A DNA stretch of 63,977 bases, the filler included, from Dimargaris cristalligena (taxonomy: Eukaryota), in NCBI GenBank assembly GCA_003614675.1. It is 3 parts of 3 records of this genome, joined end to end, with 100 filler letters (N's around TTAATTAATTAA, not from the genome) between each part and the next. Parts side by side here need not be neighbours in the genome. Positions count along the whole stretch, not along the records: positions 1 to 22,371 come from ML002634.1; 2 more parts are not named here. One strand, written 5' to 3'. Shown here piece by piece: positions 4,881 through 50,490 of the stretch; position 1 is the first letter of the stretch; the number at the start of each line of letters is the position of its first letter. The position numbers and the translations under genes are program-made. Under the pieces are notes generated by a model that was given only the letters and a program-made list of their open reading frames with translations, was not told the origin of the DNA and did not search any database.

Positions 4881-6834
4881 GGAAAGATGTAATATTTGTA
4901 ATGTAAAATAGGCTTGATAGAGTGTATTGACTAATTATACAACATCATTATTTCTTAGTCAGATTTCATTGTTACTGTGATATACTATCTTGAATCTGCT
5001 AAGAGGCAATGCAGATTGGCTTCTATTGGGTATAACACCAGGAGTACTCACAGCTAACAAACCCCACTAAATAGGTAGGGGGGGAGATTGTGGTGATAAG
5101 GCCTCACTACATTACCTCCTTGGTAACTGTCCAGGTTAAGGATCTCAGGTCAGGGACCATCAAGTGGATATTTTTGGCTGTCAGGTTTGACTTAAGCCCA
5201 GTCTTATCAATATCTAACTTTTGGGTATTTGTTTATTTTTAATATTTATGCCTCATTTTTAGTGCCAATTTAAGTGAAATGTATGTACTGAACCCTTGTA
5301 TTAGTCCAACCTGTACACTGGTGCTAGGCTCTGAGGAAATTTTGCATTGACTGGTGTCTCCAATACTGCTCCAACCCCAGTCTAACAAATAAACTAATTA
5401 CAATGTATATGTGGTGCCGTGAGAATCAATGGTGATGGCACACACAGATGATCCGGCTGATAACGAATGAAATGGTTGTCTAATTCCCGATTTGTGTCGA
5501 TATTAATCTAATGACGATGAATTTATCGAAGTCGGTGCTCTAAAATCATGTACTCATTCATTATAATATATGTTTATTATTTTGTTTTATTTGAATAAGG
5601 CATTGCATTTTTGTTTGATGAAAGCCATCACTGATCCCAAGACAAAAGGAATTGACCTTTGTCAAAGGAAAAGTCTTTTAGCGGTCAGATAAATTGAGAA
5701 AATAATACGTCATTGGTTTGTTCGATGGGCGGATAGAGAGACTGGGGAGGATACATAAACCCGGTGATATCCTACCGTTTCGAGAAGGAGTTCAGCATTA
5801 TCATTTTTCCAAGAAAAACACCACCATTACTACTCTCGTATTTCTATCTTTAATAAAAAAAACCACTTCTTTATGATGTCTTCAGATGACGGGGCGAAAG
5901 CACGGGCCGGTGCCGCAATCGAAGAACCTTCTAACACCACGTGCGGTGATAAGGGGAGTGGGATCCCTACAGTCACCAAACACAACATATATCCCCATTT
6001 CACGTGGGACCAGTCCCACAAGCCGATGCATGCACCGGTTTGATGTAGGGCATTTATATAGGATTTCTTACTGTGGGTATCCAACTGATCTTTACCGTCC
6101 TTATCTAGGGGAGGAGTTAGTCTCTCAATGAAGGTTTACCTGAGAAGAGGCTCGCTGACAATCCCGCCTGGATGTTCATCTGCTGAACATTAGTGAACCC
6201 GACTTGGGTTCCAATTTTTGACAGGCCTATGTTAATAGGCCTTCCAATATCCCCTACACACTCTCTTTACGATGGTTATGTTGCCATGACTCTATCCATA
6301 TATTTTATTCGACGCACTATATTAATTTTAAACAAAAAAGCACTTTTATATTCATGTAATAATTAATAAGGGAATAGTTACCACAGTAATGTAATTGGGA
6401 ATTGAGACTTTATGCATCAAAGGGTATTCAGTGGTAAGTTCAATAATACAACAATCCGATTGACTAGAACTACAGAACCATAATAGCCGATTTAGGTAAT
6501 ATTCCTTGAATTATCTTATCAGGTGATATCGCGTAGTAAAACATGATGCAATTTTCTAGTTTACACTGTTTGGGGTACCCCGTCTATGCGCGAAACCATT
6601 TGGAGAAGATATTCGTCACCTAAAAACAACATCATATTATTATACCGAAGAAAAAATTGATTAGTGGTCGATAAACTGACATGTATATAAGTTGGTGCAG
6701 TTTCAAATCTACTTACTGATCACAAATTGAGGGACTAGCGCCAATACCACTTTAAACCAAGAATTATCCGATATTGTTCAGTGCGTCAAAGAAGTACCAA
6801 GACTTCCAAAAAAACGCAGTTCTTGATTAGCAAA

Positions 6835-9800
6835 TCAATTGGACTTACGGTGCGAATGCGTTGGGCCCAAGTCGCCTAATGCCGAACTCGAATCAAGATC
6901 ACGTTCTTCATCCGTGTCCCTCCGCATGGCCAATAGTCGGTGTAAACTATCCCGGGCGTTTTCCGCAACCGCGGCCACAGTAAGCGGGCCATCTCGGAAA
7001 GGACCGTCCCAGCCGCAATAGAGCACCAGCCGGGCGTACAGGATATTCCGAGCTTCACTGTCCACCAACATCGCCCGGCGATAATGCTGTTCTTCCCAGG
7101 TGAGGTGATGGAAAGCCAGGGACGCCATGACTTGGCACATTTCAAGAAAATGAAAAGTGGCGAGATGGGGAAGTAGCTCCCGCTGCGATTTGATGGATGA
7201 CGAACAGGTGGCGGCGGCAGCAGGGATCGCGGGTGCCTCAGGAAGGTAGGCGAATGGACTCGCTGGCCACTCGGATTGATAGCTTAGGGGATCAGGCCAA
7301 ACGGTGACCACATTACTGAGAATGGTGATGACGGCCTCGGGGGATGTAGTGCAGCGGAACAAATCATAGACCAACACCCGAACACGCTCAGTACTGTTGA
7401 TAAGACGGCAAAGTGCGGCAAATACTCGAGTCAAGGAACTGGTATTTAAAGAGGCGATAAGCGTATTTATAGATACATAGTTTCATGAGTAAATGGATAG
7501 TACACATACACGGGGATGCATTTCTTTGGGTGCTTAGAAGCTGTTCACCCCTGGCGATATTTAGACTGGTTCTCATTAATCATAACAAACATGGAAGAAC
7601 AGGCGAGAGGTAAAGTAGATCTACCCACCCTCACTTCCACTATAGTACAGTACATGTAAAGTTCCTCGTCGGGAGAAGACATTGTAATAAACATGGTTCG
7701 CTATAGCCGGGACTTACCATATATACCCCAAACTGGATTCATCCACTGGGGTAAGTAGAGTTTCTTGACTAGTCCAATTGAGAAAGTCGTCCACCACTTG
7801 GTGTTGTTGGTGTCGCCAGGCCAATATCCACATCAGAACAACCACATGGCGCTCAGCGGCGGTTAGACTAGTACTGATTTCCACTGGGTAAACCGATTTC
7901 ATAAATTCCTGCAAATAAGGAATGGGCTCAATCGGCGGAGTCGGCCGCGGGGTCCAACGGTTACTGCCGTGGGGGGAAGTGACAGTACTCGTAGTGAGCC
8001 GCGTAGTCCACTTGAGAGCTGCGGCTGTATGACTCTGAACGCAATTGATTTCGCCCAGACAGGCCCCCACAAAAGTTCCAGTTGGCAAATTGGAGTAGAT
8101 GTAGTCTTTGATGCGATCATTAAGTTTTCGACCGAGGATACGTTGGTTAGGTCGGATATCGGCCGCAAGCAGGCCGAGATGGAGAACGGGGCCAGATAAC
8201 TTAAGGCAGCATGCTAGTTTGTGGGTGACTGGAAAGTAAAGAAGCAATCAAAGAAGGAGATACATAAATAAATGAGTAGATAGAATACACGCCAGAGTAG
8301 TTATATAGAAAAAATATATTTTGTTTAGTAAAAAAAAACGTACGTAGGTCCCGGGCTTCTCGGGTAATACCATTATAGTCGACCAAAAGAAGTCCACCAA
8401 ACACAAATTTTATTGAACTAAAAATATCAATGTATTTCAGGATGCCATGGTCAGCTAGTGGTGGAAAAATGTAAATGACCGATCGGTTATCAAATTGAGA
8501 GGACTTACATAAAGATGCCGTGGTGGGTTCCTGCAATAGGTTAGCAAGATTCTCGACCCCAGGGTTCTCCGCACCGGAGCGAGCCTCCCAAGTGATTGGG
8601 CTCGGCGATGATGGTACGGGGCTGGGTTCTGGACTTTGGCGCGACGCGAGGGATGAGGAAAGAGATACAAGGGGTACCAGTGTCGATTCCGTAATTGCAA
8701 TTGGGATGGTCAGGGTAACTGGCGGTGCCGTAAGAGGTGTTGACAACGGCAAGGGTACTGTAGTGGTTGATATCCCTCCGTTGGGTGACCATGATTCGGG
8801 AGCAGTCGGGTGTTGGCGGTTATCAAACCATTCCAGATCGATTAAGTCATCGCTAGGTGGAGCAGGCGAAACAATATTTATGGACATCTGGGATGATAGT
8901 GGACGATGGGGGCCGTATTCCCTGCCACCCTCTAACATCAAAATCTCCGCTGTCTCTTCGACATATTGCTTATTCACTTCCACGCCGGCGTACGCCCCCA
9001 CGTTGGTAGCGATGGATACGATTTTCGCTTTCTTATTTATATTTTCCTTGGGGGCTGAAGCTACCTCGTCGATGGGGGAAGTAGTAAGGGAGGGTGGTAA
9101 AAGAGGCAACAGCCCTGGTGGTGCTGAGTGTCCAATATCTACAGTCATAACCGGGGCTACACTTTGGGTAACCGATAGACGACGCTTTCGAGAAGGCTGG
9201 ACGGCGGATTTAGAGTCAGAGATGGAAGTGGACAGAGCGTTTGCGATGCTTGATGGCTGTACTTGAGTGGTTTGGGATAGTGTGGATATGGGGTGAGCAG
9301 GCGGTTGGTTGAATGGAGCCGATAAGGATTGAGGGGTCTTTAGGGGGTACGTATATAGTGTGTAAATCGAATCAAATCGCGTTCAAGCCAAGTATAACCA
9401 AACTTTAAAGGCATGGAATCTAGACAACGAAATAGGGAAACAGGGCATGATAGCATCTAGGAATAAAACATGTTTGGGACCCAGGCATGTATAGACAGCC
9501 CGCGGGTGGGGAATATCGCTTACCTTTACCGAAGTGGTAGCCGACCTTTTGAAATCAAAAATCTGGACCTGTTGATATTTGATAAGATCTAGCAATGCAG
9601 CGTTTTCTTTTTGTAGTCGGTCAAGGTCCCGCTGTATTTCCGTCTGAACACCCATGGATTGGGCTGATAAGGATGGGCCTTCGACCACAAGGACTGAACC
9701 CCGCCGATTCTCCAGGGATTGTTCATTGAGTGGGTGTCGAAGGTAGTCAACCTCCCACTGCAAGTCGGCGATCTGGTCATTTAATTGATGAATGGTTTGG

Positions 9801-10954
9801 TCCTTTTGGTCCAGCTGGGTTTGGATCTTGGGCAGCTCGTCATCGCAATGGCACGACTGGGTCGTCGGTATTTGAACCACTTCATTGGAAACGGATTTTG
9901 AACCCTCGAGGGGTTCCGTTGGCTCGAGCATCGCAAGCGTAACTGTCGCTGAGGCCTCCTGAATCTGGGACAATTGGCGAATCTGTTCATCCAATTGAGC
10001 ACGTTGGTCAGTCCAAAGTAGTTGGGATTGAGTTAGCTCGTCCTGCACCTGCTGCCGCTGCTGTTGGGTAGCTTGCAGCTCAGCTGTGAGTACGTCAAAC
10101 CGACCCTGCAATTCAGTCTGTGCCGCTGACCGTTGCTGATGAGCGGCCTGGAGTTGGGTCGTGAGGCTGTTCACTAGGCCCTGTAGGTCGAGTTGGTAGG
10201 TCTGTAGTGCAAGAGAGGCTTCCTGCTGGGATTTCAGTTGGGCCTGCACGTGGGCCAACTCCCGTTCCTTGGATAGTCCACGGGTCACGATGCTCTGATA
10301 GTCCGCCTGCTTGTCTTTGAGGGCCCGCCGGACTCCGGTGAGTTGGGCCTCCAGTTGTGCCAATTGGTCAGCCAGTTGATCGGCGCGTCGTTGCTCCTGC
10401 TGCCACTCCGTTTTGTAATTTACGGCAGCGCGGCTCCTTATGAGAGCCAAATCCATTTCCTCATTGGCGAGGAACTGTTCAAACTTGGCGACTTTCTGCT
10501 CTAGACGGCGTTTCTCGGTCCGGGATTTCTCTAGTTCCATCAATTCGGGGGGCTTAAAACCGGATATGGCAAGGTAACCACCTCTTGCTTCTTCTCCGAC
10601 ATTTGAGCCGTACCTGGAGGAGCCCTGCATCCGCCCCAGGGCCTCACGCCGCTTCACTTCGTCGGCATGGGCGACCCGGAGGGTGGTAACGGCAAGTCGG
10701 TGCTGAGCGGTTTCGGCCTGGATTTGGCCGAACTTAATCTGCAGAGCCTGCAGTTCGGACTGGCATTGATTGTATTTGCCCTGCAAAGTATGGTATTCCT
10801 TGACCTGACCTTCGAATAAGGCAATGACTTTGTGGCTGTTGATGATACGCTCCTTAACCCGGCGGACATTCCTGGTGGCCTTTGTGGTCACGGAGGCGCA
10901 GGGGGTACTGCTTCCACTGGGCTGTGCTGAGAGCGCTTTGGATGGGTCGGCCAT
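6835..10954 (-). CDS. Large 5-exon protein (~1161 aa): N-terminal coiled coil, Ser/Pro/Thr-rich middle, helical C-terminal domain resembling ICE1 (little elongation complex subunit 1)
   Basis: Four ORF-track ORFs join in frame through GT-AG introns. Exons 10954-9524, 9337-8509, 8454-8344, 8228-7718 and 7438-6835 sum to 3486 nt with compatible phases. The C-terminal motif is RVFAALCRLINSTERVRVLVYDLF...VWPD. The family call rests on recalled similarity only. Confidence 0.7.
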
Positions 10955-11980
10955 GGTTTACAAGTAAAGGCCGGGGGAGTGAGAGCACTCGCTAGTTACA
11001 GGAGCCGGCCACGCCGACTGCTGGTCTATAGGTATGTGAGTGAATAGCAAGGGGCTGGGTCCGGGAAATGGCGTGACAGTTTAATTAGGCCGAGCAGCGG
11101 ATTCTTTTTACAGTTGCACAGAACGGTACAAGAAGAGGAAAACAGCACTTAGGGGTGCGGAGGATAACCAAAGGCGAACAGTATAAACTATGCTCTACGG
11201 CGAAGGCACTACACGCCTTAGACTGACGAACTAAATGCCGAATAAAACAAAAGGGATAGTTGCAAGAGATAAAGGACCCTAGGTGCTGTATGGAAGGAGA
11301 TACTGACTCAAGCAGTCCAAGCCGCCCTGAGGGGGACTATTGCCAGTGAGTGTGAAGGCCTCAACCACACCCTGTCATGCCCCACTCCCATCGTTCGGCT
11401 GTGTTGTTTTGGGGGGGAACCAGGTCACAAATAATAAGAACCCTTAATAAGGAAATCGTGGAGACGATAAACGGACTGGGAAACTGATTGTAGTTTCTGC
11501 GGCAAAGCCTTTCCCACCAACATTCCTTTCCGGGAACATTCCCAACTACGTGAGTGTGAGTGCAGGTCTTCTGATCCTAACCCTGCCGACACCTCACATC
11601 AGAGACCTCTATCCACTGTTGCTTTCCACTCCCCTATTTTATCCACAATGTAATCTATCGAGTCAACCGCCAATATCCTTGCTGCCGGCATCGCCCTTGG
11701 CCACCTACCCCTCTATGGCATTTCCCCACTCTATAATTCTAGTAATCCAACCCATGCCCATATACTCCGCCGTATGTTTAGCAGAACGCCTCTGGGCCAG
11801 ATAATTCTACATACTAGCCCTAGAGGTAAATCAAAAGGCCGTGTGTTGTACTCCAGTTATGGATTGGCATTTAAATATATGTCGTGTATAGCAATCTGGT
11901 TGAAGCACAGTAAATAAAAATCAGTTTATATTGAATCCCGTACACCAAATTAATCACGATTTTAGTAAGCACATCGAGGG

Positions 11981-14900
11981 CTAGGCGGACGTTGGCTTTT
12001 CAACGGCCAGTGGCAGCCCCAGGGAATCATGTATGTACGAATACACGTCAGCAAGAATCACGGTCGATTTCTCTGAAAGTCCAGAATAGTAAAACACGCA
12101 CAATTATTAGGACGGTTAGTTAAGTTGAATAAGTAGGTATGGAGGTATTCTTAAATCCAGGAATCAGTTTAAACATGATCAAAATTGCCCAGTAGGGGGA
12201 TTGGATTTTACCAGGCACATACCTTTTAAGCAGACGTTCAGGGCGGCAAGGGTTCGGGGTTCCAAATCAGGGCAATAATGCAGAAGGTCAACAACCGCGC
12301 GTTGCAGTTCGCCTGACAGGGAAACAAATGGTCCAAACATAGCGCCCCGGTTGGGCATCTCGATATAGAAAAATGGGACCAGGGTCAGCTGAAGTTGGCT
12401 AGAAAAACCGGGACTTAGATGAGGAGTGTACCGTTTGAGGGCCAATGTAAGCACCCGTACTATGGTGGACGAACTGGTCGAGTGGCCGGTCTTCAATTCC
12501 CAGAGTAGTTTAGGTAACGACAGGAGCCATTTTTCAAGACTGGCCAGAGGAAGGACATTGAATTCCCCCAGGGAGGAACCCGATGCCAAAGCTGAGGTTG
12601 GGGAGGCAGCCGTATACGTTTGAATTTCGAAGAGGCGCGCTAGGTAACCGAGGGCGACATGTTTCGCCGGGGATCGGGCATTATGCGCGTGGTAGTAGGT
12701 TAGCAAACCTTCCCACAGCGCTTTGGATTCGGCGGGACCCAGGCTTTTCTGTAGGCGCCAAATCGCCGGCAGGACAGCCAGGAAATTCTTGGGTTCAAAC
12801 AGCGGGCTGGCGGGCCGGTTCTCTGAACTATCATCTGGGTAAGCCGAGGCCCGGCGCTTTTGTGGAGTGGTGCTTCGGGGAGGCCCTAAGGGCCCCGCAC
12901 CCAGTTGGGTCAAGATATAATCCAAATTGAACTGGGCCCATAATTGGACATCTTTACGAAGTTTGCTGAGTTTACCGGAAACTTGGGAGGGCGCTGGGGG
13001 TGCATTGGCTGGAGACTGGGCAGCTATAAATAAAGCAATCAGTTCACAGACGGCCGAGTTCATATCCTGGTAGATGGAAGAGGTCTGTCAAATAACAATA
13101 ATAATACCGTGTGTATGGTAGCATAATAGAACGTGTAACAGGTTAGAAATCAATATATCGAATGACTGGCTACATTAGGCGAGAATGTATTCAACGACAT
13201 CCATTAGTTAATTAAATAGGCCTGGGATATCCGTATCTTCGGGCATATATTAAAGCTGGTCAAATCTATACTCTCTTCACCACAAATTACCTTAGGGTTG
13301 GGGGTCTTCACCAAATCACGTCCAAAGGGGAAATACACCATCATATGTTTGAGTAGTTGGCATAACTCGCTTTGGGGGTTGTTCTGTATGGAGATTATCA
13401 AGGGTACAATAATAGGCACACATGGTAAGTTTGCAATATTCAAAAAAAAAAAAAAAAGGCACCGGAGACTATGATCTAAGGTTAATCCCATTAAACACTT
13501 TGGGGGTATTATATATTATAAGATGCTGACTGAGTATCGCCGAAAATTACCAATTAAAAATATATCTCGACTGAATAAATGGCGAAAATAAAAGGCAATT
13601 TAGCCATTACTTACAGTGAACTCATGGATACGAGAATCGCTGCGCCACAAGACCCGTAGAATCTGTAGGACGAGATGTAACACTGATAGCTCGGGTTTCG
13701 AGGGATCAATGCTCGAACCAGTGAAGATAGACGGACACGCCTCTAGCCATACCGCCTGAAGGAACGGATAAAGCTGAGTCATAATCTAGTATCATTGATA
13801 GAGGAAAAGGGTTCCAAAAGAGTTCATAATAAACAGCGGTTAGTAGGAAATAACACAAAAAAGGACATTCTATCACCAAGCAATGCCATATATTATTCAC
13901 AGGATACACACACACGCATAATTTTCGGGTTGAATTGGCTTACAGTGTGGCTGTCGATTAACGCTGGGGCGGACGACGAATGGGCTTCCTTGCGTGACTG
14001 CGCACTGGGGGTGGACTGGAGGCTCTGGGCCAAATCTTCCCCAAAGAGGCCCAGGGCCGCAAACGGATTGCTCAACGAGTGGGACTGGGACCAGATCGCT
14101 CCCGGGTGGCCCAAAGGGGCCCCTCCGACTCTTTGGTCAGCGGAATTGATCGCCCCCGCTGATGATTTATGGCTATACTGAACCCCCGATCCCCGGGTCG
14201 TATCGCTGGTGAATACGCTCCGCCTCTGCCAGGCGGGTTCGAAAAACCAATAGTAGGTCTCAGCAATCGTTAGTTCGAGGGGGGCCGAGTCCAATCCCGC
14301 CCCTGCCGTTCCGGAGGGGGCCAAAGTGCGTAGGAAATTGAGTAGGCTGGCCATAATCTGGACCCGTACGCCCTGGGACCAGGCCTGGGCTTGGAAATTC
14401 ATATGGCTTTTACCCGGGCCACGCTGAGACGCACCAGCGGGAGTTTCTCCGGCAGGGGTCTCGATCCGCAACATATCCAGGTAAATGGGAAGGAGCTGAG
14501 CCATTGAGGGAATCCAGTGGTAAATTTTGGTATCAAATGAGAATAATATAATATAAATATAAATAGTAAATAAAACCAGCCTAGAAATTAATTTGAAAAG
14601 GTGACAATGGGTCCAAACGTGATAATCAAATTAGTTCTCGGGAATTATCTAAAAGGTTATAGATGTGTTGGGGAGGCCTACCTTTTGTTTATACTGGCCC
14701 ATATACCGAGGCAGTATTTCAATCCAGGTATTCAGTAATTTCAGTCCGTCAATACGAATCTCCTCGTCAATATGGGTCATTGCCGAGTTGGTATAGGCCA
14801 GGATGATGGGGTAAAAGGCGGCCAATTTGGATTCAGGAAGGGCCCGGAAATGGTCGACGCAAAACCCCCGCACCAACTTCCGGATCACCGGTTCCTAGAT

Positions 14901-19470: not shown

Positions 19471-20599
19471 ATGGTTCGGTTTGTTACTGCCCTGACTATC
19501 ATGGCCCTCGCAGCCCCCCTTCTTGTGTCGGCCCAAGGCTCGCTTCCTGGCGGTGGTAAGTGATATAGATCCGTTTATATATCTATCCAGTTGTATCATA
19601 TGTTATACGATCTCCCCTTCAATCCAAGTCGATTGTTGCTTGAAATTAAACCAGCAATGTGTCATGAACTGTATTCGGAAACTAATTGAAATATCAAGAT
19701 GCATTCTCCACGGATACTTGAATATTGTTACGATTATAGGATGCGATGCCACTCACGCTTGTGTGGCTGACCAATGCTGTAGCCAGTGGGGCTGGTGCGG
19801 CATCGGGGACACCTTTTGCGGCACCGGCTGCCTGAATGGCCCCTGCTCAGGGAACGGTGGCGGCAACCCCCAACCCACTGACACCTCGGCTCCCCCTACT
19901 AATCCCACAGACGTCTCCACCGATGGCACCTGTGGTTCTGACAAGACCTGCCCCGACAGTCAATGCTGTAGCCAGTGGGGCTACTGTGGTGTAGGCGACA
20001 GCTTCTGTGGTACTGGCTGCCAAAACGGTCCTTGCTCAGGGAATGGTGGTGGCAACCCCCAACCCACCAACACTGATGTTTCGGTTCCTCCCACCAGTCC
20101 TACCGACGTCTCCACCGATGGCACTTGCGGTTCTAATAAGACCTGTCCCAACAGCCAATGCTGCAGTCAGTGGGGTTATTGCGGTGTGGGCGACGGCTTC
20201 TGCGGTACCGGTTGCCAAAACGGACCCTGCTCGGGTAATGGTGGCGGTATCCCTCAGCCCACCAATACCGAAGTGTCGGTTCCTCCCACCAGCCCCACCG
20301 ACGTTTCAACCGACGGCACATGCAGTCCCAGCAAAATGTGTCCCGATAGCCAATGCTGCAGTCAGTGGGGTTATTGCGGTGTGGGCGATGGCTTCTGCGG
20401 TACTGGTTGCCAAAACGGACCCTGCTCGGGTAACGGTGGTGGCAACCCCCAGCCCACCAACACCGAAGTGTCAGCTCCTCCCACCAGCCCCACCGATGTC
20501 TCTACTGATGGTTCTTGCAGTGCCACCAAAGTGTGCCCGTCCGGCCAATGCTGTAGCCAATGGGGCTATTGTGGTACCGGCCCTTCGTTCTGCTCTTAA
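19471..20599 (+). CDS. Secreted chitin-binding protein with five tandem hevein-like (CBM18) domains, ~314 aa, no catalytic domain
   Basis: Exon 1 (19471-19555) encodes the signal peptide MVRFVTALTIMALAAPLLVSA. The intron 19556-19739 is GTAAGT...TAG. Exon 2 has five repeats of C-x5-C-x4-CCSQWG[WY]CG-x4-FC separated by Gly/Pro/Thr linkers; the last repeat is truncated. Confidence 0.95.
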
Positions 20600-26892: not shown

Positions 26893-29800
26893 ATGGTCCC
26901 CAAGTCAACGCCCAATACCGCCACTATGGCCACCCCAAATTCCAAGACAAAGACCCGAAAGCTTAGTAAGGCCCTGCGCAAGCTGAAACAGAAGGGCCGC
27001 TTGACTACTCCTTCTTCGCTGGACCAGGAACAGGAAGGGGGAGACGGTGTTGACGAGGCACCTCTCACCTCTAATCTCGACGACTGGGAATGGTCCGAGG
27101 TCGCCTGTCCCGATAATGCTATGATCACCGACGAAATCGGAGGCTTCCTGTGCCTCGAAGAGCTGGACGGAGTCGACTGTGTCTGGCAGGGCGACGACCA
27201 GATTGGACGCATTGTGCAATTCCGGGTAAGTGGAAATATCATTCGCCTCTATTGGCATTTCTACATATTTATGTTCGCATATGGAAATACGCACTGTGAG
27301 TCGCCAGGAAGTGGGCTGTAGTAATCTATGAGCGGCTGACTACCATCTCCCCTTTACCCTGGAATGAATCTAGTGCTCATTCATTGGAGATTCACCTCCC
27401 TGACTAGCCCTCCTCTCCTAGCGATTAGTCGCACGCACCTCCTACATTCCTTGGCAACTAATCTATAAAGTATCATTGATTTCTGTTTATAACCTCCACC
27501 CTATCAGAAATCGGGCAGTTCCACATCCAAGAAAAGCAAGCGCGCTCGGCCCGACACCCCACTATCTCTGGAAGAAACCTCAAATTATATATCCATTGAT
27601 GACTTCGAGGAAGGGGCGCAGTATGTCCGTCAAGCTACAGATGCCGATGAGGAAAATACTCCGGCCGAGGTGAATACGACGCCTGTAGTCAAAGCCGACT
27701 CTACCAATCTACCAACATCCAAAAAAGCGACCAAGCAAGCTAAGAAAGCCAAGGGGGAGTCTGCCGAACCATCGCCAGCTGGGGCACCCCTAGTGCCTGG
27801 AACCCCTGACAAATCTGATGAGAGTACGTTTATCAAGGCAATCATTTATTATTTATTCGTTTTGTCCCGCTGCACCACTGGTGGATAACACATGAATTTA
27901 GTGGCTACTCTAAGCTTAAATTGCAATGGGCCTCTGCCTAGTCTCTCGTCTTCGAAGAGGCATGGCATTTCCGCCAATGGTGAGCTTATTGTTGCATAGC
28001 CATTTAACCAGCGCCAACCTTTTATTTTTATTGTTTGCTACCTTAATTTCTAGGCGATTCCCCGCCCGAAGCCGACATAGAAGCCTGGAAGTCCCTTGGT
28101 CTTCACAAATCCCTATTGAACAACCTCGCCAGCCTAAAATTCAGTACCCCCACTCCCATTCAGGCCCAAACCCTCCCGCTGACCCTCGCCGGCCGCGACG
28201 TTGTGGGTGCCGCCGAAACCGGTTCGGGTAAAACGCTGGCCTTCGGTCTACCTATGCTGGACTATTATCTGCAGCAATCCACGGCCGCTGATGACCGTCT
28301 GATCGGGCTGGTTCTCACTCCGACCCGTGAATTGGCTATCCAAGTCCGGCAGCACTTGAGCCAAATCGCCACCGACACCCGGGCCCGGGTAGTCACGGTG
28401 GTGGGGGGTATGTCCGTCCAGAAGCAACGCCGAGTCTTGGCCCAAAATCCGGCCATCATTGTGGCGACCCCCGGTCGACTTTGGGATATATTATCCGAAG
28501 ATCGGAAACTGGGTAACCGGTTACAGACGGTGCGTTTCCTGGCGATTGACGAGGCGGATCGACTCCTCGAGCGGGGTCATTTCGCCGAAGTAGCCAATAT
28601 CCTGAAACTCATCAACCAAACTCCGTCCACCGGGAGCGAGTTCGAATCCGAGTCGAGTGAGGCGGTGGAAATGGCCCCCGGGTCTACCACTCCCCCCGCA
28701 GCGGAAGATTCCCTGCGGCAAACGCTCATCTTCTCGGCTACCCTAACCGAGGACCTGCAGGCCGCCCGCGGCGGTCCCAAAAAGTTAAAGGGCGTTGCCA
28801 AAAACAAGGTTCCGCGATCGGCCAACTCGGTGCTCAAGGACCTGATGGATCGGGTCCAGTTCCAGGATCCCTCACCTGTCCTGGTGGACGTGACCCAGGC
28901 CCACGGTATGGCCGGTCGTCTCGTTGAAAGTCGCATCGACTGTCTCCTCGAGGACAAGGACATCCACCTCTACTACCTCCTCACGCGCTACCCCGCCCGG
29001 ACCCTGGTGTTCGTCAATTCGATTGACGCCATTCGCCGTCTGGTACCCATTCTGCAATTACTCAAAATCCCCGCATTTGGGCTGCACTCCCAAATGGAAC
29101 AGCGGGCCCGACTTAAAAATGTCGACCGGTTTAAGTCACATGAACAGGCGGTGCTCGTTGCTAGTGATGTGGCGGCCCGTGGTTTGGATATTCCCCTGGT
29201 CGAACACGTCATTCACTACCAAATTCCCCGTGCGGCGGATGTAAGTAATAATTATCTACATTCATCCCAGCCCGAGATGAAGTGGCCCAGATGCCTTCTA
29301 CTAACCAATATCTGCATATTTCGGTGGGGCTTGAGTACCTCTTTGTAACGTAACGCCCATTAAAGAATACATCGAAAGGGACATAGAGAGAGGACCCCTC
29401 GACCACATGCGCCCCCCTGGGTATTCAGATTCTAGGACTTACCCGTTATATATTCATCTACCCCATACATTACCCAATATCTAGATCTACGTCCACCGAA
29501 GTGGCCGTACCGCCCGTGCCCAGAAGGATGGTATTAGTATCATGCTGTGCTGTCCCGAAGAGGCTAAGCTATTCCGCAAACTTTGTCACCAGTTATCCAA
29601 GGGTAAGTAGTGTTTTAGGTATACTTGACTATTTAAAGTCGTAGATGTGAGGACAATGCCAGCTCCTAGTTGGGTATGATAAAGAATTGATTGCTAAATG
29701 ACCTCCGTTTAATTACCCCCTCCCTCCCTCTCCTGTACTCCGACGCTCTATTCCAACCCGGTACTAGACGAGTTACCTCGATTCCCGGTTGATCACCATA

Positions 29801-32272: not shown

Positions 32273-33518
32273 TGTCTGGGTGCGGAAAGTAATACTCAGG
32301 AGCCGTTCAGGGGAGGGGTGTCCAAGGTACGAGAAAGAGAAACTACGGTTCCTAAGGGTCAAGTGTATATAGTGTAGTGCACACTGGTTAGGGTATTAGA
32401 ATAGAGAAAGCGACAGGGAGGGAGAGAGAGAGATATTGAGGTTGAGAGAGAAAGTGAGGTAGGGTCCAGAAAAGCGACCGAAAGACTGAGAACTGGCTTC
32501 CATTACGCTTGCTTGATCCTTGATCGTACATTTTTTTCCACAGATATACGGAAGCCAGGAACAGAAACCCTAATGCGTAGCGACTATTCAAGGGCACACT
32601 GCCTCACTCATTAGCCGCGCGCGCTCAACTGGGAAGTGAACGGGCCCAGAGTGACGGCGGAATAGGCCCCTGCATACGGCTGGCCCGCCAGCAAACGAAC
32701 CGACAGTGGGTGTGGATGGTGCCTACGTGACGAACCCTGAAGGGTCTCTCTCCTCTTTTGCTCGTTTGTCGGGCAACAATGCTAATGTTATGATGGCCAG
32801 ACCAATAATCACCCTTTTACCCACGGCAGCCGCTCCGTGACTGCACGCAGAGAGCCCAATAAAGCGAAAGGAAAATAAGTTACGAGGGACGCATAGAGTC
32901 CGCACGCTCCGTTTAGAAGAGAAGTGAAGTGATGATGATGATGACCCTGGCCGCGAGTAGCGGCGACTCCCCAAAAAACTAGTCAGTATGTATGCGCCTA
33001 TTTTTTTATATTGAAAGGGCCCACCGTGATGCCCTGGGCCTGAAATCACAACTCTCTCTCACTTTCTTTCCCTTTAATTTTATTATTAAATACCAGCGGG
33101 GTTTGGTTGTTGTTTTGGGCGTAGTTTAATAACATTGTGTTTATGTTTCCACTGGTGGTCAACTTTAGTTCCCTTTTGTTCTATATTTATATATATATAT
33201 ATACGCCATACACCACCAGTCCTGCATGCCACTCCTTTCACCCCCCTCCCTTCTCGTTAAACCCTCCGTCGTCCTTATCCACTTCGTTGTCTATTCCTCC
33301 CCTTGTGCTTCTCACTCGTTTCCTCCCCATTGCTGGTTTCCCTTCGCCATACTTACACACTGTTCTTCCGTTTACCCCTCTCCTGATTTCCTGCCCGTTC
33401 GGTGATTGTTTGACTCATACTGGCGTTTATCCCTTCTCCCCAGAGTGGCCCTTGGCTCCGCTTCGCATTCAGCCCTCCCCCACCACTGCCACAGCCGTCG
33501 TTGTCGCCGTCACCGGCC

Positions 33519-36125
33519 ATGGAGTCCCAGGCAGCCCTACCGGCGCCCAGCCTCAAATCGACCTCGTCCACCACTCGGGAACGGGCCGCCTCGGTACTCT
33601 GTTCGCCCCGCAGCCTTATCCCCAAGCGGCTCCCCGTTCCCTCCATTTCTGTCGACCTCAATCCCGCCGAAGGCACCATCCACATGCTTTCCAATCCTAC
33701 GTCTCCCGTTCTATCCACCAGTGCTATTGATTCCTTCCGGTGCGCCTCTCGGCTAACCTTTGACTATAATTCCGATTCCTCCTCGGAGCTCGATCTGGCC
33801 GAATATGACCCCGGCCACCGTCGGCCGCCCATACCGGATACGCTTCTCTCGGGCCAGCCCACAATGGGCGACGGTAGTGGGGATTCAATATCCCCGACCG
33901 ATGCCGGCCCTCCGTCCATATTCGCCACCGACTCCGTCACTTTCGAGAGTGACCTGGAGAGTGAGAGCAGTTACGACCCCTTGGATTCATCGTCTATCCG
34001 GCGCGGTGGTCACGCGTTTGGTTTCATCCGGCCCACATCGTCGTACCCCATCCATAAGATTGATAAATTGCGCGCCGAAATGGCCCGCCGCGCCGCCGAG
34101 GGGTTTCTACCGGACAATGAGCGGTCCATCGGTCACCAATCCTCCGCCCTGGACACCAGCAGCATGAGTATAGCCAGTACCAAATCCAGCCTACGTAACA
34201 AAACCCCCCTCGGGGCACGGGCATCATCCAAGGCCTCCCCCGCCACCACGATGGGGGTCCGCGAAATGGACGCCCGCATGAAGGGACTTCAGCACGAGAA
34301 CTCCGACCTGCGTATTCAACTCTTCAGCCTCCGGGAAAAGCTCGCCAAATACAATTCCACCAGTCTCGAAGACATGGAGGAAACCGTCCGCAAGTACCAC
34401 GGTCAGCTGGAGCGGTTCTACAACGAAAACGCACAGCTGACTGATGACCGCCAAAGGCTGCAGGCCCAGGTGGATAAACTCCTTTATGAAGTGGAACACC
34501 CGGCACCGTGCACCTTGGAACACGGCATATCCGCCGAACAGGAAACGATGCTCAACCGGGCACTGGCGGACTCCCAGACCATGCGCCAGCAGATTGAACA
34601 ACTCCGGGAGGAAAACGAGACCCTCCAGCAGAACAACCGGGAGCTCATCGAAAGTCGGGCCACGCTACTGAACCAGACCTCGGAACTGTCATCCGACCAC
34701 TCCATTTTGAAAAGCCAGCTGGACCTGGCCAAGGGCGAAAATGAAGTTCTGGTCAACCGGCTTCACCAGGCGGCAGTGGAAATCACGGAAGTTAAGGAAA
34801 ACATTCTCTGCTACGAGGGGCAGGTCCACGCCCTCCAGAAGGAGGTATCTTATTACCGCGCCCAGTGCAATCCCGTCGAATCCCCCTATCCGGCCGCATC
34901 ACCAGTGGGAGCCCACCACAAGACCTCCCGCCTCACCACCCCACCCCATAGTGCGTGCGGCGTCCCCTTTCCCCGTATCAACCGGCGGGCGAGTAATCTC
35001 AGCAGTGTAAGCAGTACGTATTACCTGCCCCAACCTCCCTACGGTTTACCCGGCCCATCCTCCGACGCCGCCCATATTACCGCCGAAGTAGGTCCCCTCG
35101 ATGACACCGCCACCCACCATTCCCACCCCTATGGGTCGCCGCGACCCGCCCTCTCCCACGATGTCCTCTCGGTGGGCAGTGGGAGTGGGATGGGAGGGCA
35201 GGGGACCAGAGCTCGGGGGGCCTCCGTCTTGGCTTCCCCCACCCCTGACTTGGCCGGTCGGGCCCTGTACAGTCGGCTATCCCACCATGCCAGCCCCCGT
35301 CCCCGCGGATTTACCGAAGCTAGCTTTAATGCCCTTGCGACTGCCGCCCACGGCATGGGCGGGGACGAGTGGATGGCTACCAAAGTGGCCCTTGATAGCA
35401 CCATCGAAAAATTACAATTCGAACTCCGCGACGCACGCCAACTCAACCTCGACAAATCCAAGAAAATCACCGACCTGGAGGCCCAGCTCAATATGACCGT
35501 CCGGTCGCTAAAAGCGGAGGACTTGGGCCACCGCCAGCGGTTGGACTACCTCCAGGAAAAGGTGGCCAAATATAACCACGAACGCACCGTTTTGGCCGAG
35601 GAGAATGAGTCACTGCGGCAGCGGTACGATGACTATCAGCGTCGGGTGGAGGAATTGGACGAGGCGTACAAGGAAGCCCAGATTACGACCAGTCGACTGC
35701 AGCAAGAGCTCCGGCTCAAGGACGGTATGCTCCAGGAGTTCCAGTTAACGCGGGGGGACGGCTCCACCACCACTACCACCGTGACAATGACCGCCGTTGC
35801 CGGGGGCGGAGGGGGAACGATAAGTCAAATCGCCTCACCTTCCCAATCCGACCAGGACGGTATGGCTCGTCTCAACGTCCAACTCCAACACTCGCTCCAT
35901 TTTAAGGAAGCCGAGCTCAAGTACGAACAAGACCGTTGCGCTTTGCTCCACGATATCATTGCCGGCCACAAGGGTGAACTCACCCACTTGCGTGACCAGA
36001 ACCGACAGTACACCCGGGCCATCAACACCCTGGTTAAGCAAATCGAACTAGTCGAAAGTCTGAGGCCATCGCTGGATAATGCCTTGGGGTATCTAACTCC
36101 CCCGCGGTCGAGCCGAAAGCCTTAA
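33519..36125 (+). CDS. Coiled-coil protein with centrosomin motif 1 (CM1), Mto1/Pcp1/CDK5RAP2-like gamma-tubulin complex receptor
   Basis: Intronless ORF from ATG 33519. MGVREMDARMKGLQHENSDLRIQLFSLREKL fits the CM1 consensus and is followed by long heptad-repeat regions. Confidence 0.75.
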   Translation: MESQAALPAPSLKSTSSTTRERAASVLCSPRSLIPKRLPVPSISVDLNPAEGTIHMLSNPTSPVLSTSAIDSFRCASRLTFDYNSDSSSELDLAEYDPGHRRPPIPDTLLSGQPTMGDGSGDSISPTDAGPPSIFATDSVTFESDLESESSYDPLDSSSIRRGGHAFGFIRPTSSYPIHKIDKLRAEMARRAAEGFLPDNERSIGHQSSALDTSSMSIASTKSSLRNKTPLGARASSKASPATTMGVREMDARMKGLQHENSDLRIQLFSLREKLAKYNSTSLEDMEETVRKYHGQLERFYNENAQLTDDRQRLQAQVDKLLYEVEHPAPCTLEHGISAEQETMLNRALADSQTMRQQIEQLREENETLQQNNRELIESRATLLNQTSELSSDHSILKSQLDLAKGENEVLVNRLHQAAVEITEVKENILCYEGQVHALQKEVSYYRAQCNPVESPYPAASPVGAHHKTSRLTTPPHSACGVPFPRINRRASNLSSVSSTYYLPQPPYGLPGPSSDAAHITAEVGPLDDTATHHSHPYGSPRPALSHDVLSVGSGSGMGGQGTRARGASVLASPTPDLAGRALYSRLSHHASPRPRGFTEASFNALATAAHGMGGDEWMATKVALDSTIEKLQFELRDARQLNLDKSKKITDLEAQLNMTVRSLKAEDLGHRQRLDYLQEKVAKYNHERTVLAEENESLRQRYDDYQRRVEELDEAYKEAQITTSRLQQELRLKDGMLQEFQLTRGDGSTTTTTVTMTAVAGGGGGTISQIASPSQSDQDGMARLNVQLQHSLHFKEAELKYEQDRCALLHDIIAGHKGELTHLRDQNRQYTRAINTLVKQIELVESLRPSLDNALGYLTPPRSSRKP

Positions 36126-37438
36126 TTTGTTATCGATGTTTAAATATTGCACGAACATTGGTTCGCGGCCTCTGTGAGCGGAGGGAGTAGTATTGCCAAC
36201 CTCCCCTCTCCTTTCACCTTTATCGACCCACATACGGTCCGGGTCTTTTTACTCTAAATAATTGCTTAGATATTTATATATATATATATATAGATACAAT
36301 TCCGTATACTTCCCGAATTTGATACCCCAATGACTTCGGGGGGTTGCCTTCGTCAGTCACGGCCCATCGTCTTACCCACACTTACAATTGCCCTTCCCAC
36401 CTCATTTTATTCACTAATTTTCATCGCTCATTCACCACCACACCTACCTCGCACCCGTGCTGACGCTGTAATTTACTATTATTATATATCTATTTTTTAC
36501 TTCACATTTCAGTTCCATCAATTCGCCGATATACCCCCTTTCCATGGATGTGTTAGACCTGTATGCCAACCTCTCCTTACTTTATTCCTTATTGGAGAAC
36601 CTATTATATAGCTTTAGTTTATTTAATTTTATAAATACTTAGGGAATAATTTTACCACAACTTAGTAAGACTTCGGATGAAATATAAATATGAAATGGAC
36701 TCAGGGACGTCTTTTTATTTTGGACTCGGATTATGCTGCTAAGTAAGGGGCTTGGTACTTAACGGTAACCGGCAGCTCGACCAATACAGCGGGGCTGGTA
36801 TAACAAACCGGAGCCATGCGGGATGGATTTGCACTCATCGGTGGAAATCTAAACCAAAACCGCTCTCATTGCCGCTTCGTCCTTTGGCAGGTTTCGTATC
36901 AACAAACCATACATATGCCGTTCCCATTTCCCCCTACTGGCCCTAAATACAATCATAGGAGGTGGGGCCCAGCCATGTAGGCGACATCAGCGTGGGCAGC
37001 CTTTTAAATGCAGGGCTGATTATCCCGGATGATCAGGCAACGAGGTTGCGAGTAGCTTGAATACAACACCTGATTTTTACAGGCACGATAACCCCATTCT
37101 TTATTTTCGGCCTAGTTGGCGAGGTGTAATGTAGCCCCGTCTCACTCTTTTGCCATTGATGTAGGACCATCATCACTGGTCCTGACTGTTGCAGGGTCTG
37201 TGGACAGGCCCCAAAAAGAAGAACCTGACAGCGACTCCAGCGGCTATTTCCCACCCCTACGGCGTTTTCTTCCCAGATGCTTTGGTTCAGTTCGCCCTCG
37301 TCGACCATTAAAAAAACCTCGCTGCCCTCCCTACATTGCACATTGCCCAGCGGTTTTATTCTATTTCAGTTTTACATAACTATCTATCTATCTATTTATC
37401 CATATAAATTTTGTCCACCCGTACAAGTAGCATTCGTC

Positions 37439-40400
37439 ATGGCTTCCCCCGCGGCCGGTTCTGAGGCAGAATGGTCTAATTTCATCCAGGCCCTCAGCGT
37501 CCCAACTGCCGAGGCAGTAAAGCATCTCCATCAGCTACAAAAGGACCCCGAAGGCTGGTCATTGGCCGCCCGGTTGTTGCAAACCGCAAGTCCGGCCTGC
37601 CAATTCTACGGCGCCCACACGCTCCAGGTCAAGCTGTCCCGCGATTGGGCCAGTCTACCCGAGTCGGAGCGACTGCCCTTACGCGACCAACTCCTGCGCT
37701 GGTTGTTGGCCTTCGCCCACGGTCCCCATAACGTAGTAACCAAACTGTGCCAAGCTCTCACCACACTCTCCCAGCGACTAATAACGGCCGGTGTTGGATC
37801 GGGGTTTATTACCTATACCCTCGACTGGCTGCGGCGGGAGGGTCGGGACGAGTCGGTGAATCGAATCATCATCGATTTCCTCACAATTCTGCCCGAAGAG
37901 GCCCTGCACCAGTTGGATACGAGTCAGGCGTCCATTTACCACCATGAAATCCAAACCGCCCTGCCGTTGATTCTGGACACCTGTTTCGGCTATCTGGCTT
38001 GCACCGGCCGGCCCGAAGCCGGACTGCAATCCTCGGCCTACGCCCGGGGCGGAGCACTAGAACCCAATGTAGGACATCCGCTGCAGGAGGCCACACTCCG
38101 TTGCCTGACTAAATGGGTGGCCCACCACATGCCCCTGGAAAATCTCCCCGCCGTTTTGGACCGGGCCTTTTACTTTTTGCCTTACGAAACCACCCGGGAT
38201 GCGGCCAGTGAACTCCTCCAGGCCGTACTGGATCACCCGAAAGTGTCACAGATTCAGGCCACGGTAACCCAACGGTTCCTAGTTTGGCTGGACACGCCGT
38301 GGCTCCGGGATGCGGTACAAACGACCATCGTGGATACTGACGAGGATGCCGCCCGTGTTATGTGTAACCTGTTGCTAGCGTTTGCCGAGGGCTTCACTGA
38401 CTTTATCCTAACCCAATTGCAGCACCCGGCCATTAGCAACCTGCTGGAATACCTACTGCGCTACACCGACTACCCGGGGTACTTTAGCCATGACCAGGAA
38501 ATCAGCGAATTGCCCCTTAATTTCTGGTACTTATTCCAGGAGGGGATCGCTGATTTTGATATGGACATTCATGACCCAGACCCATTCACCCCCATTCCTT
38601 CGACGGGCGACCTGGCGGGATCCTACCGGGAGGCCAATCCAGCAGTAGGTGCACCCCTACCCCCGTCCGGTTCGACCACCGGTCAACTACCCATGGTCGC
38701 CATCCGAGCCTTCTTCCGTAACCTGGTCCATACGCTAACTGGGAAACTAGTCTACCCTCCCCTGGCCGAATGGGCATCGTGGCCCAAAGACATCCGGGAA
38801 CGCTTCCGGGCCTACCGCCGGGACCTCGGCGATATCCAGCTCGCCTGCTACTACGTGCTGCGGGAGGAGATGCTGGGCGTGATCTTCAATATCCTGGATA
38901 CCCTAACGGGCGGCTGCCCTACCGCGGAATCATTGGGTCCCACGGGGCCCCACGGCCGACCCACCGAAGCCGTGTTATTCACCCTCCGCTGCGTCCAGGA
39001 AGCCGTGCCCGTCCACGAATCCACTTACTTGCGCCGGCTGTTCGCCGGTCCCTTCCAGACGCTGGTGGGGGAGTCGAACTATACCCCCCTCCAGGTCGCC
39101 CTCCTGCATTTCATCGGGGCCTATGCCGAGTGGTTGAACCACCATCCGGATCTAATTATACCCGCCCTGCGTACCGTGACCCAGGCCTTTACCACCCCGA
39201 CACTGGCCAGTGCTGCCGCGTTGGCCTTCCGTTCCCTGTGCGACACTTGTAAAGAACATCTCAAATCAGTCGCACCAGATGTCATTGAAAGCGTTATTAA
39301 TATTTCCTCACATATTCCGGTAAGTCCTACATTCATAATTATTTTTTGAAAGGCATACCCTTATCCAATTATCCGGTAAGAATGGCTATACCCAATTGAA
39401 CCATCTTTGATGCCAAACCGGTCCTGTATTTATATATGCTCCGAGACTCAACTAAGCTGACTGCCTACTAACCGGAAGTCCCTTTTCCCTTCAACCATCG
39501 GTGGTTACCATTATTCCGGATGGAAATTGACCCACCGTTTATAGAGTACCGAAAAGGCGAAGGCCTTTGAATCCATGTGTGACCTACTCCTACCTTTGCC
39601 CCCGGAGCATTTCGAGAAACCCTTTTTCTATCTAGTAGGAAACTTGCTGTCAACCACTTTAGCCCTGGTTCAGAATCACCAGGGGTTGAATTCCGATGAC
39701 CAGCGGAGTGAGTTACTCACTCATATTGGCTACCTCACCGCCTGTGGCCGGGGTCTCCAGCCCCCGGACCACGAATCAACAGGGTCGCGCTACGGCCGGG
39801 CAGGCGGGGGTGATTCCACCGAAATTGTCGATCTCACCGAATCCCCCGGCTCCGCCGGGACCCCCGCTAGCGCCACCGTGCGGGTGGAACAACTCATGGC
39901 GGCCAATTGCTGGTCGCAATTACTATCCAGCGAAACGCTAGCCAATTTCCGCCAGCTGACCATGACTGTCCTAACGGAACTGGGCGACCGGTTCGGTCAG
40001 GACGAAGAGGTTGTCGAAGAGGTTACTCAGTGGCTGAAAACCACGCTCCGGCAGTTACCCGGGGACCCCTGGGAACTGAAATCGAACGCGGAGGCGTCGG
40101 AAATCGTGGCGGTGTTTGAACTCTTCGTGACACCCCCACATTTCTTCAACATGTTCCAACCCGATCCCCAATTCTTGGCCCGGTTCCTGGTCGACCGCTA
40201 CGAGAAGTTACTGGCCGCGGTTCACCAGATTAGCGGCGGAGGTACCGCCATCGTCTCGGTTGCGCCCCGACTGGACCCGGCCCGGGCCATCTCGCTCATG
40301 ACCGCGTACCTCGACACAGCGGCCCACTTTGCCGCGGTCTACGGTAACCTGAAGCGCTACACTATATGGTACCGCAATGCGACCGCCTTGTCTGCCGGTC

Positions 40401-41370: not shown

Positions 41371-41732
41371 GTGGTGTACTAGATGGGTAGATTGGGTCTA
41401 CGTACCGTGGCCTGAAAGACACGCCCATTACCAAACTACTGGAATTATTGTAGACCGGATATTTCTCGAAATACCCGGTCCCTTAAATAAATACATTTTT
41501 TTAAAATAAAAACCCCCTAAAGGATACAATGGTAGCTGTGGTTTGGCGGCTGTCCCTGTCAGTGTACGTAAGAAATTAATGGAGGTGGGGAAACTCACTA
41601 AACCGGTGTAGGAAGGTGCGTGAGTAGGAGGTGAATTGCCCCACCTCCTTGCGTTATAGTAGTTCTATTTCGCCCATTAAACCGTACCTTTTACTTTCCA
41701 TTTCCTGTACACTGCATTACTCTTAGCGCGAC

Positions 41733-42920
41733 ATGACCGACAATAGCTCCCAGTCGTCGAGTGCCGCCGCGGCTACCTTTTGGACCGAACTTAGTTCGGA
41801 GAAGGAGAGCCTGTGGGCGGAGTTGAATGCTATTGACGCCGCGCTAGGCAGTTCCAAACCCGCCTCTTCGTCGTCTAAGGAGCGCAGCGAATTAGGGACC
41901 CGCCAGGCCCGGGTACAGCTGGCTATTCTGGATTTGGAAGGCAAGGTCACCCAGGCCTTGGTGTTCCTACCGGCCTACGATGAGCGGCTCTATAAGCAAC
42001 AGATTCAAGAACTCAAGGCCGCTGCGAAACGCCAAAAGGACGCTCTGGCTCCCAAGGCCCGCTTTTCGTTTCGCACTAAGACGGCCCCGACCAAGAAGGC
42101 CCCGGTCCCAGTCCCGGCCCCGGAATCCGACTTGGGTCCGGCCTCGACTGGACCAGCGTCCTTAGGCGCCCTTATCGCCAAACCACCGACCGAGCTGAAC
42201 GAACCGACTCATACTACCGCCGACCCGGCGGCTACCTTGGCGGACTTTGCCGACTCCTATCACACCATTGGCGCACTGCCCTCCTCCGATGCCACATCCG
42301 ACCAGACCAGCACCTTATCCAGTAGCTATAAGGTACGAAACGGCCGGAACTCCATCATCAACTGCCTGCCCACCGGTGGCCAACTCCGCTCCCTATTTCT
42401 GTATGAACTTCGCCACTGCCTGGTCCTCGTCGGACCCGTAGCTGGCTCCGTTTTCCTGGAAGCTTGCCACGACTGTGTCATAGTAGTCGCCTGCCGTCAG
42501 CTCCGCATCCATACGTCCCACCATTTAACCTTTTACCTCCACGCAGCATCTCACCCCATTATCGAGGACTGCGACAAAATCGTCGTGATGGATTATCCCC
42601 CTCCCCTAAAGCCCGCGGCCTCACTATCTACAGGGATGAAGTCGAATAGGACGGCGGCGTCCGAAACCACTCGGACCATTTGGGAACGGGCGGCATTATT
42701 GGAAACGGCTAATTTGTATGACCAGGTCAACGATTTTAAATGGCTCCGGCGTCAGGCCTCACCGCATTGGCGGGTTGGGACAGGTAGTACGTCTACTGCC
42801 ATCCCCAGTGAACTCTGGGATCAAATGGCTGCCCCTCCCTCATCTTCAGACCAAAGTGCCACGCTAAGTCCTTCCCAGGCCCAATTATTACAGACATTTT
42901 TGGCCCATAGCCAACCCTAG
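41733..42920 (+). CDS. TBCC: Tubulin-binding cofactor C
   Basis: N-terminal FLPAYDER...PKARFSF; beta-helix domain GPVAGSVFL...ACRQLRIH...HPIIEDC; C-terminal VNDFKWLRRQASPHW. Confidence 0.93.
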   Translation: MTDNSSQSSSAAAATFWTELSSEKESLWAELNAIDAALGSSKPASSSSKERSELGTRQARVQLAILDLEGKVTQALVFLPAYDERLYKQQIQELKAAAKRQKDALAPKARFSFRTKTAPTKKAPVPVPAPESDLGPASTGPASLGALIAKPPTELNEPTHTTADPAATLADFADSYHTIGALPSSDATSDQTSTLSSSYKVRNGRNSIINCLPTGGQLRSLFLYELRHCLVLVGPVAGSVFLEACHDCVIVVACRQLRIHTSHHLTFYLHAASHPIIEDCDKIVVMDYPPPLKPAASLSTGMKSNRTAASETTRTIWERAALLETANLYDQVNDFKWLRRQASPHWRVGTGSTSTAIPSELWDQMAAPPSSSDQSATLSPSQAQLLQTFLAHSQP

Positions 42921-49182: not shown

Positions 49183-50490
49183 TTAGGCAAGGGAGTTGAA
49201 CACGCGGTTGTGGCGGGCAATACTGGGACCGTATTCCTCGTACTCGGCCTTGGTGTGACTAATGGTATAGAATTGATCCGTGCAGGCCATCAAGCTACCG
49301 CCGAACCAGACGGCGTGGCGCTGTTTCTTGTGGGCAATGACATTGACTTCAATGGGCTTCGCCTTCAAATGACCACCGCTCTGGTCCTCGGAAAGCTGCA
49401 CCCGGCCATCGACCACGTGTTTAATGTCCCGCTGGAGGCGTTTACCGAAATCCTTGAACATCGTCGATCCGCCGGACAGGACGATATTTTTATAGAGCCC
49501 CCGACGGGTATCGATGGGGCTGGTTTGAATGACCTGGTCGACCACTTGGGGAAGAGGGGTCAAAAAGTCGGAACTGACGATTTCGGGGTTGAAGAAAATT
49601 TCCGGAGCCAGGAAACGTTCGTAACCGACATCGACGGTATACGGGCGCTGGGTACCACTATGGACCGCTTCGAATTGTTTAAAGTATTTGTGGGGTTCCT
49701 GGTCGAAGCGCTTGAATTCCTTGACGATATCGGGACACACGTAGGAGTACTGTTCCTTGATCCGACGGGCCACATCCAGGGAGTCTTCCGGGGGGATGGC
49801 AATTTCCTGGTGTTCACGGAGCAGCTGCTGCACAAAGGCGGTGATGTCCCGTCCGGCAATGGGGATATGCCGAATGGAACTGCCAATCACGTACCCTTCG
49901 GCAACGGGAATAACGTGGGTCACACCGTCGCCGGAGTCAATCACGGTACCGGTCAGGGTCTGGTCAGTGACTTTATCCGAGGTCCAACTGGCGGCCAGGG
50001 CCAGCACCGCCTGAACGGCAATGTAGAGGCCCTGGATATTGAAGGATTCGAAGAAGATTTCGGCCGTGTTTTCCCGGTTTTCGGGGGCGTTGAGGGGCGG
50101 TTCGGTGAGCAAGAAATAGTGGTCTTCGGGTTCGCAGCGCAGGTATTTGAAAATACACTGTTCCCAGTAACGTTCCATATGGTCCCAGTTGTCGATTTGG
50201 CCGTGGCGGATGGGGTAGTTGAGGTTGTAGGTCTTGGAGTTGCTGAGGGCCTTGTCGCCAATGTAAAAGTCCAGGTCTTCGATACCGCGCTTGGAGGCCA
50301 AATGGGACGAGGCGGAGGCGGACGACGATAGGAAGGCGGGCTTTTTAGGGACATTGGGGGCCCCGCCGGCACCGGCTTCGCGGGTACCGATAACGGTGGG
50401 AATCACAAACTGGGGACCGCTGTTGCCGGCGAAACCCATCTTGGTGTAGCCCGTGCCATTGTCGATCACAACAGGGGCGAGGCGGGACAT
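49183..50490 (-). CDS. ARP3: Actin-related protein 3 (Arp2/3 complex)
   Basis: Intronless 435 aa: [66 protein letters not shown]. Confidence 0.98.

Follow-up and report, generated by a model that had tools for sequence, protein, structure and literature searches.

A candidate fungal counterpart of the ICE1 scaffold in Dimargaris cristalligena

The window analysed here, a 63,977-nucleotide stretch of Dimargaris cristalligena DNA made of three joined genome parts, carries on its minus strand, between positions 6835 and 10954, a four-exon gene whose product is annotated only as a hypothetical protein (P0001). We lean towards the view that the family of this protein is the fungal counterpart, by descent, of animal ICE1, the Dimargaris copy being a truncated variant. 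The link to ICE1 is an indirect one, and the evidence for it is suggestive, not decisive.

ICE1 is a scaffold which joins ELL/EAF, ICE2 and ZC3H8 and is required at small nuclear RNA (snRNA) genes; binding sites have been attributed to both its N-terminal and its C-terminal region (PMC5493778; this and the other papers cited are drawn on in excerpt). ICE2 and ELL have been placed on ICE1 residues 1191-2266 (PMC7044329), and the little elongation complex which they form with ICE1 has been linked to Integrator (PMC7044329; bioRxiv 10.1101/2024.01.24.576984). In the literature surveyed, this complex has been studied in animal systems only, and no report of a fungal ICE1 was found in the open-access literature, supplements being outside the scope.

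Organization of the protein

Exon 1 (9524..10954, minus strand as for all parts of the gene; 477 codons when an in-frame 102-nt segment is retained) starts with the ATG at 10954 and encodes a long coiled-coil-type region, with a composition of 46% Q/E/K/R/L and 2% Pro. The head of this coiled coil bears a conserved motif, NVRRVKERIINSHKVIALFE (10811..10870), which aligns with the Geosiphon, Acaulospora and D. xerosporica proteins described below. Exon 2 (8509..9337) encodes a proline/serine-rich and probably disordered linker (46% S/T/P/G/N, 14% Pro), including a basic RKRR patch at 9179-9190. Judging from its sequence, this patch may be a nuclear localisation signal; a resembling K/R-R-R-L/I-S patch is also present in proteins P0004 and P0007 of the family. 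Exon 3 (7718..8228), to which residues 56-183 of P0003 and 729-765 of P0002 map by tblastn, encodes the first half of a C-terminal helical domain. Exon 4 (6835..7438, to the TGA at 6835) opens with the most conserved block of the protein, SLTRVFAALCRL...VWPDPLSY, the start of which is the ...VWPD motif quoted in an earlier note on this DNA. The C-terminal domain conserved in the family corresponds to residues 835-1042 of P0001 and spans 6982..7884, intron 3 included.

The C-terminal 397 residues are predicted to be all-helical. In their structure model, the mean predicted local distance difference test (pLDDT) value is 48.9, and only five helices around the conserved block are confident (pLDDT 70-87, residues 120-220 of this part). 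The coiled-coil Pfam matches of the protein are weak (RsiG, SlyX, Fez1). A precomputed Pfam label of P0001, PF24161, corresponds to the coiled-coil family CCDC39; it was set aside, hmmscan having failed to reproduce it. The composition of each exon, these weak coiled-coil matches and the all-helical prediction agree with the order of parts which had been described in the earlier note: coiled-coil N-terminus, disordered middle and helical C-terminus. The window protein thus has the architecture of ICE1, metazoan ICE1 (KIAA0947) showing its parts in the same order, with a long disordered middle. The two differ in size, the Dimargaris protein of 1116-1124 residues being about half as long as the 2266 residues of human ICE1 (PMC6351623).

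A small family in Dimargaritales and Glomeromycota

When the single sequence of exon 4 was searched exhaustively with phmmer in a set of 1.84 billion representative proteins, five matches were obtained at E<=1e-3, P0001 itself among them, all lying within exon residues 1-61 or 1-145. The others are a 984-residue protein of Dimargaris xerosporica (P0002, E=5.7e-8), a partial protein of Dispira parvispora (367 aa), an 1100-residue protein of Geosiphon pyriformis (P0004, E=8.2e-5) and a 99-residue unnamed fragment. When the C-terminal part of the Geosiphon protein (residues 688-1100) was used as query in a word-index search, two of the 8000 candidates scored were retained, the only addition being a 964-residue protein of Acaulospora morrowiae (37% identity over 95% of the query, E=2.1e-82). 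A similar search with alignment A2, in which 8000 candidates were again scored, also retained two of them. P0002 was not recovered, although this protein is part of the query alignment, which indicates that the index is crowded. Scans of metagenomes matched 596 and 489 pattern stretches, none of which could be confirmed in either scan. In the searches made here, relatives with the same layout were found only in Dimargaritales and in these two Glomeromycota.

The full-length members have two blocks in common, in the same order: the N-terminal motif at the head of the coiled coil, then the C-terminal core. Between P0001 and the Geosiphon protein, BLASTP aligns the core without gap over 99 residues with 34% identity (E=3e-19), and the N-terminus (P0001 18-119 with P0004 24-145) with E=6e-5. 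Comparison of the Dimargaritales and Glomeromycota alignments by hhalign gives a probability of 99.5% (E=2.5e-22), with P0001 residues 835-1042 matched to P0004 residues 763-933. As a side observation, two near-identical D. xerosporica proteins, P0002 and P0006 (988 aa), are encoded on different contigs and fall in one 90% cluster; they may represent a recent duplicate or two haplotypes.

Possible relationship with ICE1

The Pfam ICE1_C model (PF25817.1, 193 positions, curated cut-off of 27 bits) was scanned together with the rest of 24,736 Pfam models at E<=10, and it matched two of the six C-terminal family members scanned. In the full-length Acaulospora protein it is the sole Pfam match, with residues 787-862 aligned to model positions 8-82 (16.3 bits, E=0.0087); the C-terminal part of this protein taken separately reaches 18.0 bits (E=0.0026). 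In the C-terminal part of the Geosiphon protein, where the model ranks close to the best match, residues 931-998 are aligned to model positions 15-82 (11.9 bits, E=0.19). All these scores are below the cut-off. The two matches lie at aligned positions and, when they are extrapolated to model position 1, 184 and 185 residues remain to the end of the proteins, to be compared with the 193 positions of the model. Since the two proteins are related, their matches represent one piece of evidence and not two. They carry weight because the family had been named beforehand in the earlier note, from another species.

A possible further likeness to metazoan ICE1 concerns the C-terminal fold. By structure comparison, the model of the Geosiphon C-terminal core resembles a MIF4G-type helical repeat, a kind of similarity which is common among helical repeats, and the family-conserved domain corresponds to the C-terminal part of this MIF4G-like region. 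The C-terminus of ICE1 is itself predicted to adopt a MIF4G fold (Baird et al. 2018; PMC5896957). A language-model comparison points in the same direction. In the ESM Atlas, where scores under 0.9 count as leads only, a vertebrate cluster named "KIAA0947 (Fragment)", annotated as 100% ICE1_C, neighbours the Geosiphon C-terminus with a score of 0.88. It has 162 of 256 features in common with this query, more than any other match listed. Fragments of INTS2 outscore this cluster and come at the top of the neighbours (0.92); INTS2 was set aside as an identity because the Pfam scans gave no INTS2 match. For the Dimargaris C-terminus, the best score is 0.83 and the ICE1 cluster is not among the matches listed.

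Several results weigh against the ICE1 identity. The 27-bit cut-off is reached by no family member scanned, and the Dimargaris protein, whether taken whole, as its C-terminal 397 residues or exon by exon, has no ICE1_C match at E<=10. The exon 4 search described above, with its single-sequence query, returned no animal protein at E<=1e-3. About 100 residues separate the conserved LCR...VWP block from the segment downstream of it which matches ICE1_C, and in the alignment the three Dimargaritales proteins all show mostly gaps over this segment. The homology detected by hhalign also stops at residue 933 of the Geosiphon protein, and the ICE1_C match of this protein starts at residue 931. No further piece was detected when the Glomeromycota proteins were compared with the whole window by tblastn. 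The proposal of a possible fungal ICE1 homolog made in the earlier note is partly borne out. If the family is ICE1, most of the Pfam-defined domain has been lost from the Dimargaris copy, which is a second difference from the metazoan protein, and the helical core located upstream has been kept.

The same sub-threshold scores, the missing animal match and the lack of ICE1_C in the window protein would be expected of a lineage-restricted fungal scaffold, built from a coiled coil and a MIF4G-like helical repeat and not derived from ICE1, in which the weak ICE1_C matches and the shared architecture would result from chance or convergence. The frequency of similarities among helical repeats speaks for this explanation too, as does the absence of ICE1 from the Saccharomycotina and Basidiomycota surveyed, as reported in the excerpt used of PMC6351623. 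Chance accounts less easily for the fact that, out of 24,736 Pfam models, the only one matched by the Acaulospora protein is the one named beforehand, that this match recurs in Geosiphon at the aligned position and at the right distance from the C-terminus, and that the ICE1_C cluster appears as well in the language-model neighbour list, which is independent. An origin unrelated to ICE1 has to be taken seriously, and we consider it possible rather than probable.

Comparison with other MIF4G-type proteins

The protein could also be a divergent member of another MIF4G-type family, such as CWC22, UPF2, the Sgd1/NOM1 type or Gle1, which likewise carries a coiled coil at its N-terminus. Gle1, CWC22, UPF2 and Sgd1-type proteins have Pfam models of their own. 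Neither these models nor that of MIF4G itself match any of the seven family proteins at E<=10, so that the resemblance to MIF4G is structural only. No sequence-level match was found either between the fungal family and the MIF4G-domain proteins UPF2, eIF4G, CWC22, CBP80, DAP5, Paip1 and Not1, whose overall architecture differs. In the structure comparison, the Gle1 rows have a lower Z score than those of UPF2, eIF4G and CWC22. The fungal protein is also much longer than Gle1, and neither this length nor the long disordered middle suits a member of these families, which makes this assignment very unlikely. In terms of the models, the likeness of the fungal family to MIF4G-domain proteins may reflect only a common arrangement of helical hairpins.

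The model of the window protein itself did not rise above background in a VIA search. Sequence searches of the PDB gave rows at chance level only. Foldseek, which the earlier note had proposed as a check, returned only generic ARM/HEAT rows when run against the PDB, with a best E of 3.1e-3 and a template modelling (TM) score of at most 0.33.

Gene structure and transcript model

The Dimargaris locus is a real multi-exon gene, in which four minus-strand open reading frames (ORFs) are joined by splicing into one frame, as stated in the earlier note. An ORF scan delimits them, from stop to stop, at 9383-10957, 8201-9382, 7714-8247 and 6835-7482. The limits of 6835 and 10954 given beforehand proved to be right, the DNA itself, read and checked by script, showing the start codon ATG at 10954 and the stop codon TGA at 6837-6835. 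Three GT...AG introns keep the frame across the four ORFs and yield a coding sequence of 3375 nt with zero internal stops, that is, a protein of 1124 residues; the figure of about 1161 put forward earlier was slightly high. Intron 1 (9338..9523, 186 nt) has the donor GTAAGC, and its junction reads SVK|TPQ; intron 2 (8229..8508, 280 nt, GC content 0.34) and intron 3 (7439..7717, 279 nt) both have the donor GTAAGT, the latter interrupting the conserved core. The GC content of the introns is 0.34-0.44, as compared with 0.51-0.55 for the exons.

All three junctions are identical in P0001, the NCBI "hypothetical protein" H4R33_005289 of 1116 residues from Dimargaris cristalligena, which is 100% identical to exon 4 (one match out of 2019 word-index candidates). 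The single-gene reading goes beyond chance, because the independently annotated Geosiphon and Acaulospora proteins hold both conserved blocks in the same order, and it is also supported by the core, which is split by intron 3 and continuous only after splicing. The compared gene models being all computational predictions, the four ORFs might still be separate transcripts or a mis-joined prediction, an explanation made scarcely credible by the canonical splice sites with AT-rich introns, by the occurrence of both blocks, in order, within single proteins of four other species and by this reunited core.

P0001 differs from the 1124-residue reading in three respects: one substitution, 34 residues skipped and a different 3' end. 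The skipped residues correspond to the in-frame 102-nt segment at 10499..10600, which is an intron in the NCBI model, with an AG acceptor, the frame being kept either way. Given its location inside the coiled-coil exon and its weak donor, GTCGGA, this segment may well be coding. At the 3' end, P0001 is spliced after HSH, where a GTAAGT donor lies at 6848, and continues into two optional small exons (6749-6717 and 6619-6561, spanning 6561..6749 on the minus strand) through GT-AG introns of 99 and 97 nt, and the end of the gene at 6835 is uncertain for this reason. The 30 residues encoded by these extra exons show no significant similarity to the tails of the relatives, the score being reached by 98, 320, 645 and 1223 of 2000 shuffles.

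Two further observations concern this locus. The substitution is found at 10109-10111 (minus strand), with Leu in the window and Phe in P0001, and this difference suggests another strain or assembly version. Antisense to exon 2, a frame of 255 residues is open at 8499-9266 (plus strand) and most probably represents a shadow frame of this GC-rich coding exon.

Proposed function and evolutionary implications

By analogy with ICE1, the Dimargaris gene product would be a nuclear scaffold. Its coiled coil might serve for self-association or for the binding of partners, and would be followed by a flexible proline-rich linker, the basic patch of which could contribute to nuclear localisation. The MIF4G-like domain would offer a docking surface for a partner, which might be a DEAD-box helicase. 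Acting together with the coiled coil, this helical domain could retain partners, for instance elongation factors of the ELL/EAF type, at the snRNA genes transcribed by RNA polymerase II. The Dimargaris protein would be a shortened version of this scaffold, with the MIF4G-like core kept and most of the terminal ICE1_C segment gone.

In a broader scenario, to which we give an even chance, the ICE1 scaffold and a machinery resembling the little elongation complex, dedicated to snRNA gene transcription and 3'-end handling, would be older than animals. They would have been kept in early-diverging fungi, namely Glomeromycota and Dimargaritales, and lost in Dikarya, and the Dimargaritales version would have been trimmed to the coiled coil and the MIF4G-like core. 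If true, a fungal relative of ICE1 would make the origin of this scaffold at least as old as the common ancestor of animals and fungi, and would suggest that the well-studied yeasts have lost it, and not that animals invented it. A naturally shortened version could also serve to tell the essential parts of the scaffold from the dispensable ones.

Other features of the window

Within the window, none of the 21 other large ORFs matched the Pfam families of the partners ELL/EAF, ICE2 and ZC3H8; they encode ordinary housekeeping proteins. One of them, at 28047-29348 (plus strand), encodes a DEAD-box helicase (DEAD 4e-40, Helicase_C 1.2e-19). Along the joined stretch, some 17 kb separate it from the gene; any link between this helicase and the MIF4G-like domain is pure speculation. 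A frame of 903 residues, open at 33414-36125 (plus strand), has no Pfam family and shows weak tblastn matches with the Geosiphon and Acaulospora coiled coils (best E=1.7e-4, at 34314-34844), which probably correspond to generic coiled-coil similarity.

Pfam matches also identify, on the minus strand, a TEX10-like TPR protein (12179-13087), a member of the actin family (49183-50655) and the condensin subunit Cnd3 (52013-55230). On the plus strand are found a protein with five chitin-binding repeats (19496-20599), a protein like importin-13/transportin-3 (37229-39349), tubulin cofactor C (41727-42920), a protein kinase (56582-57367) and an enzyme with AMP-binding and carrier-protein domains (61403-63976), the ORF of which runs past the end of the window.

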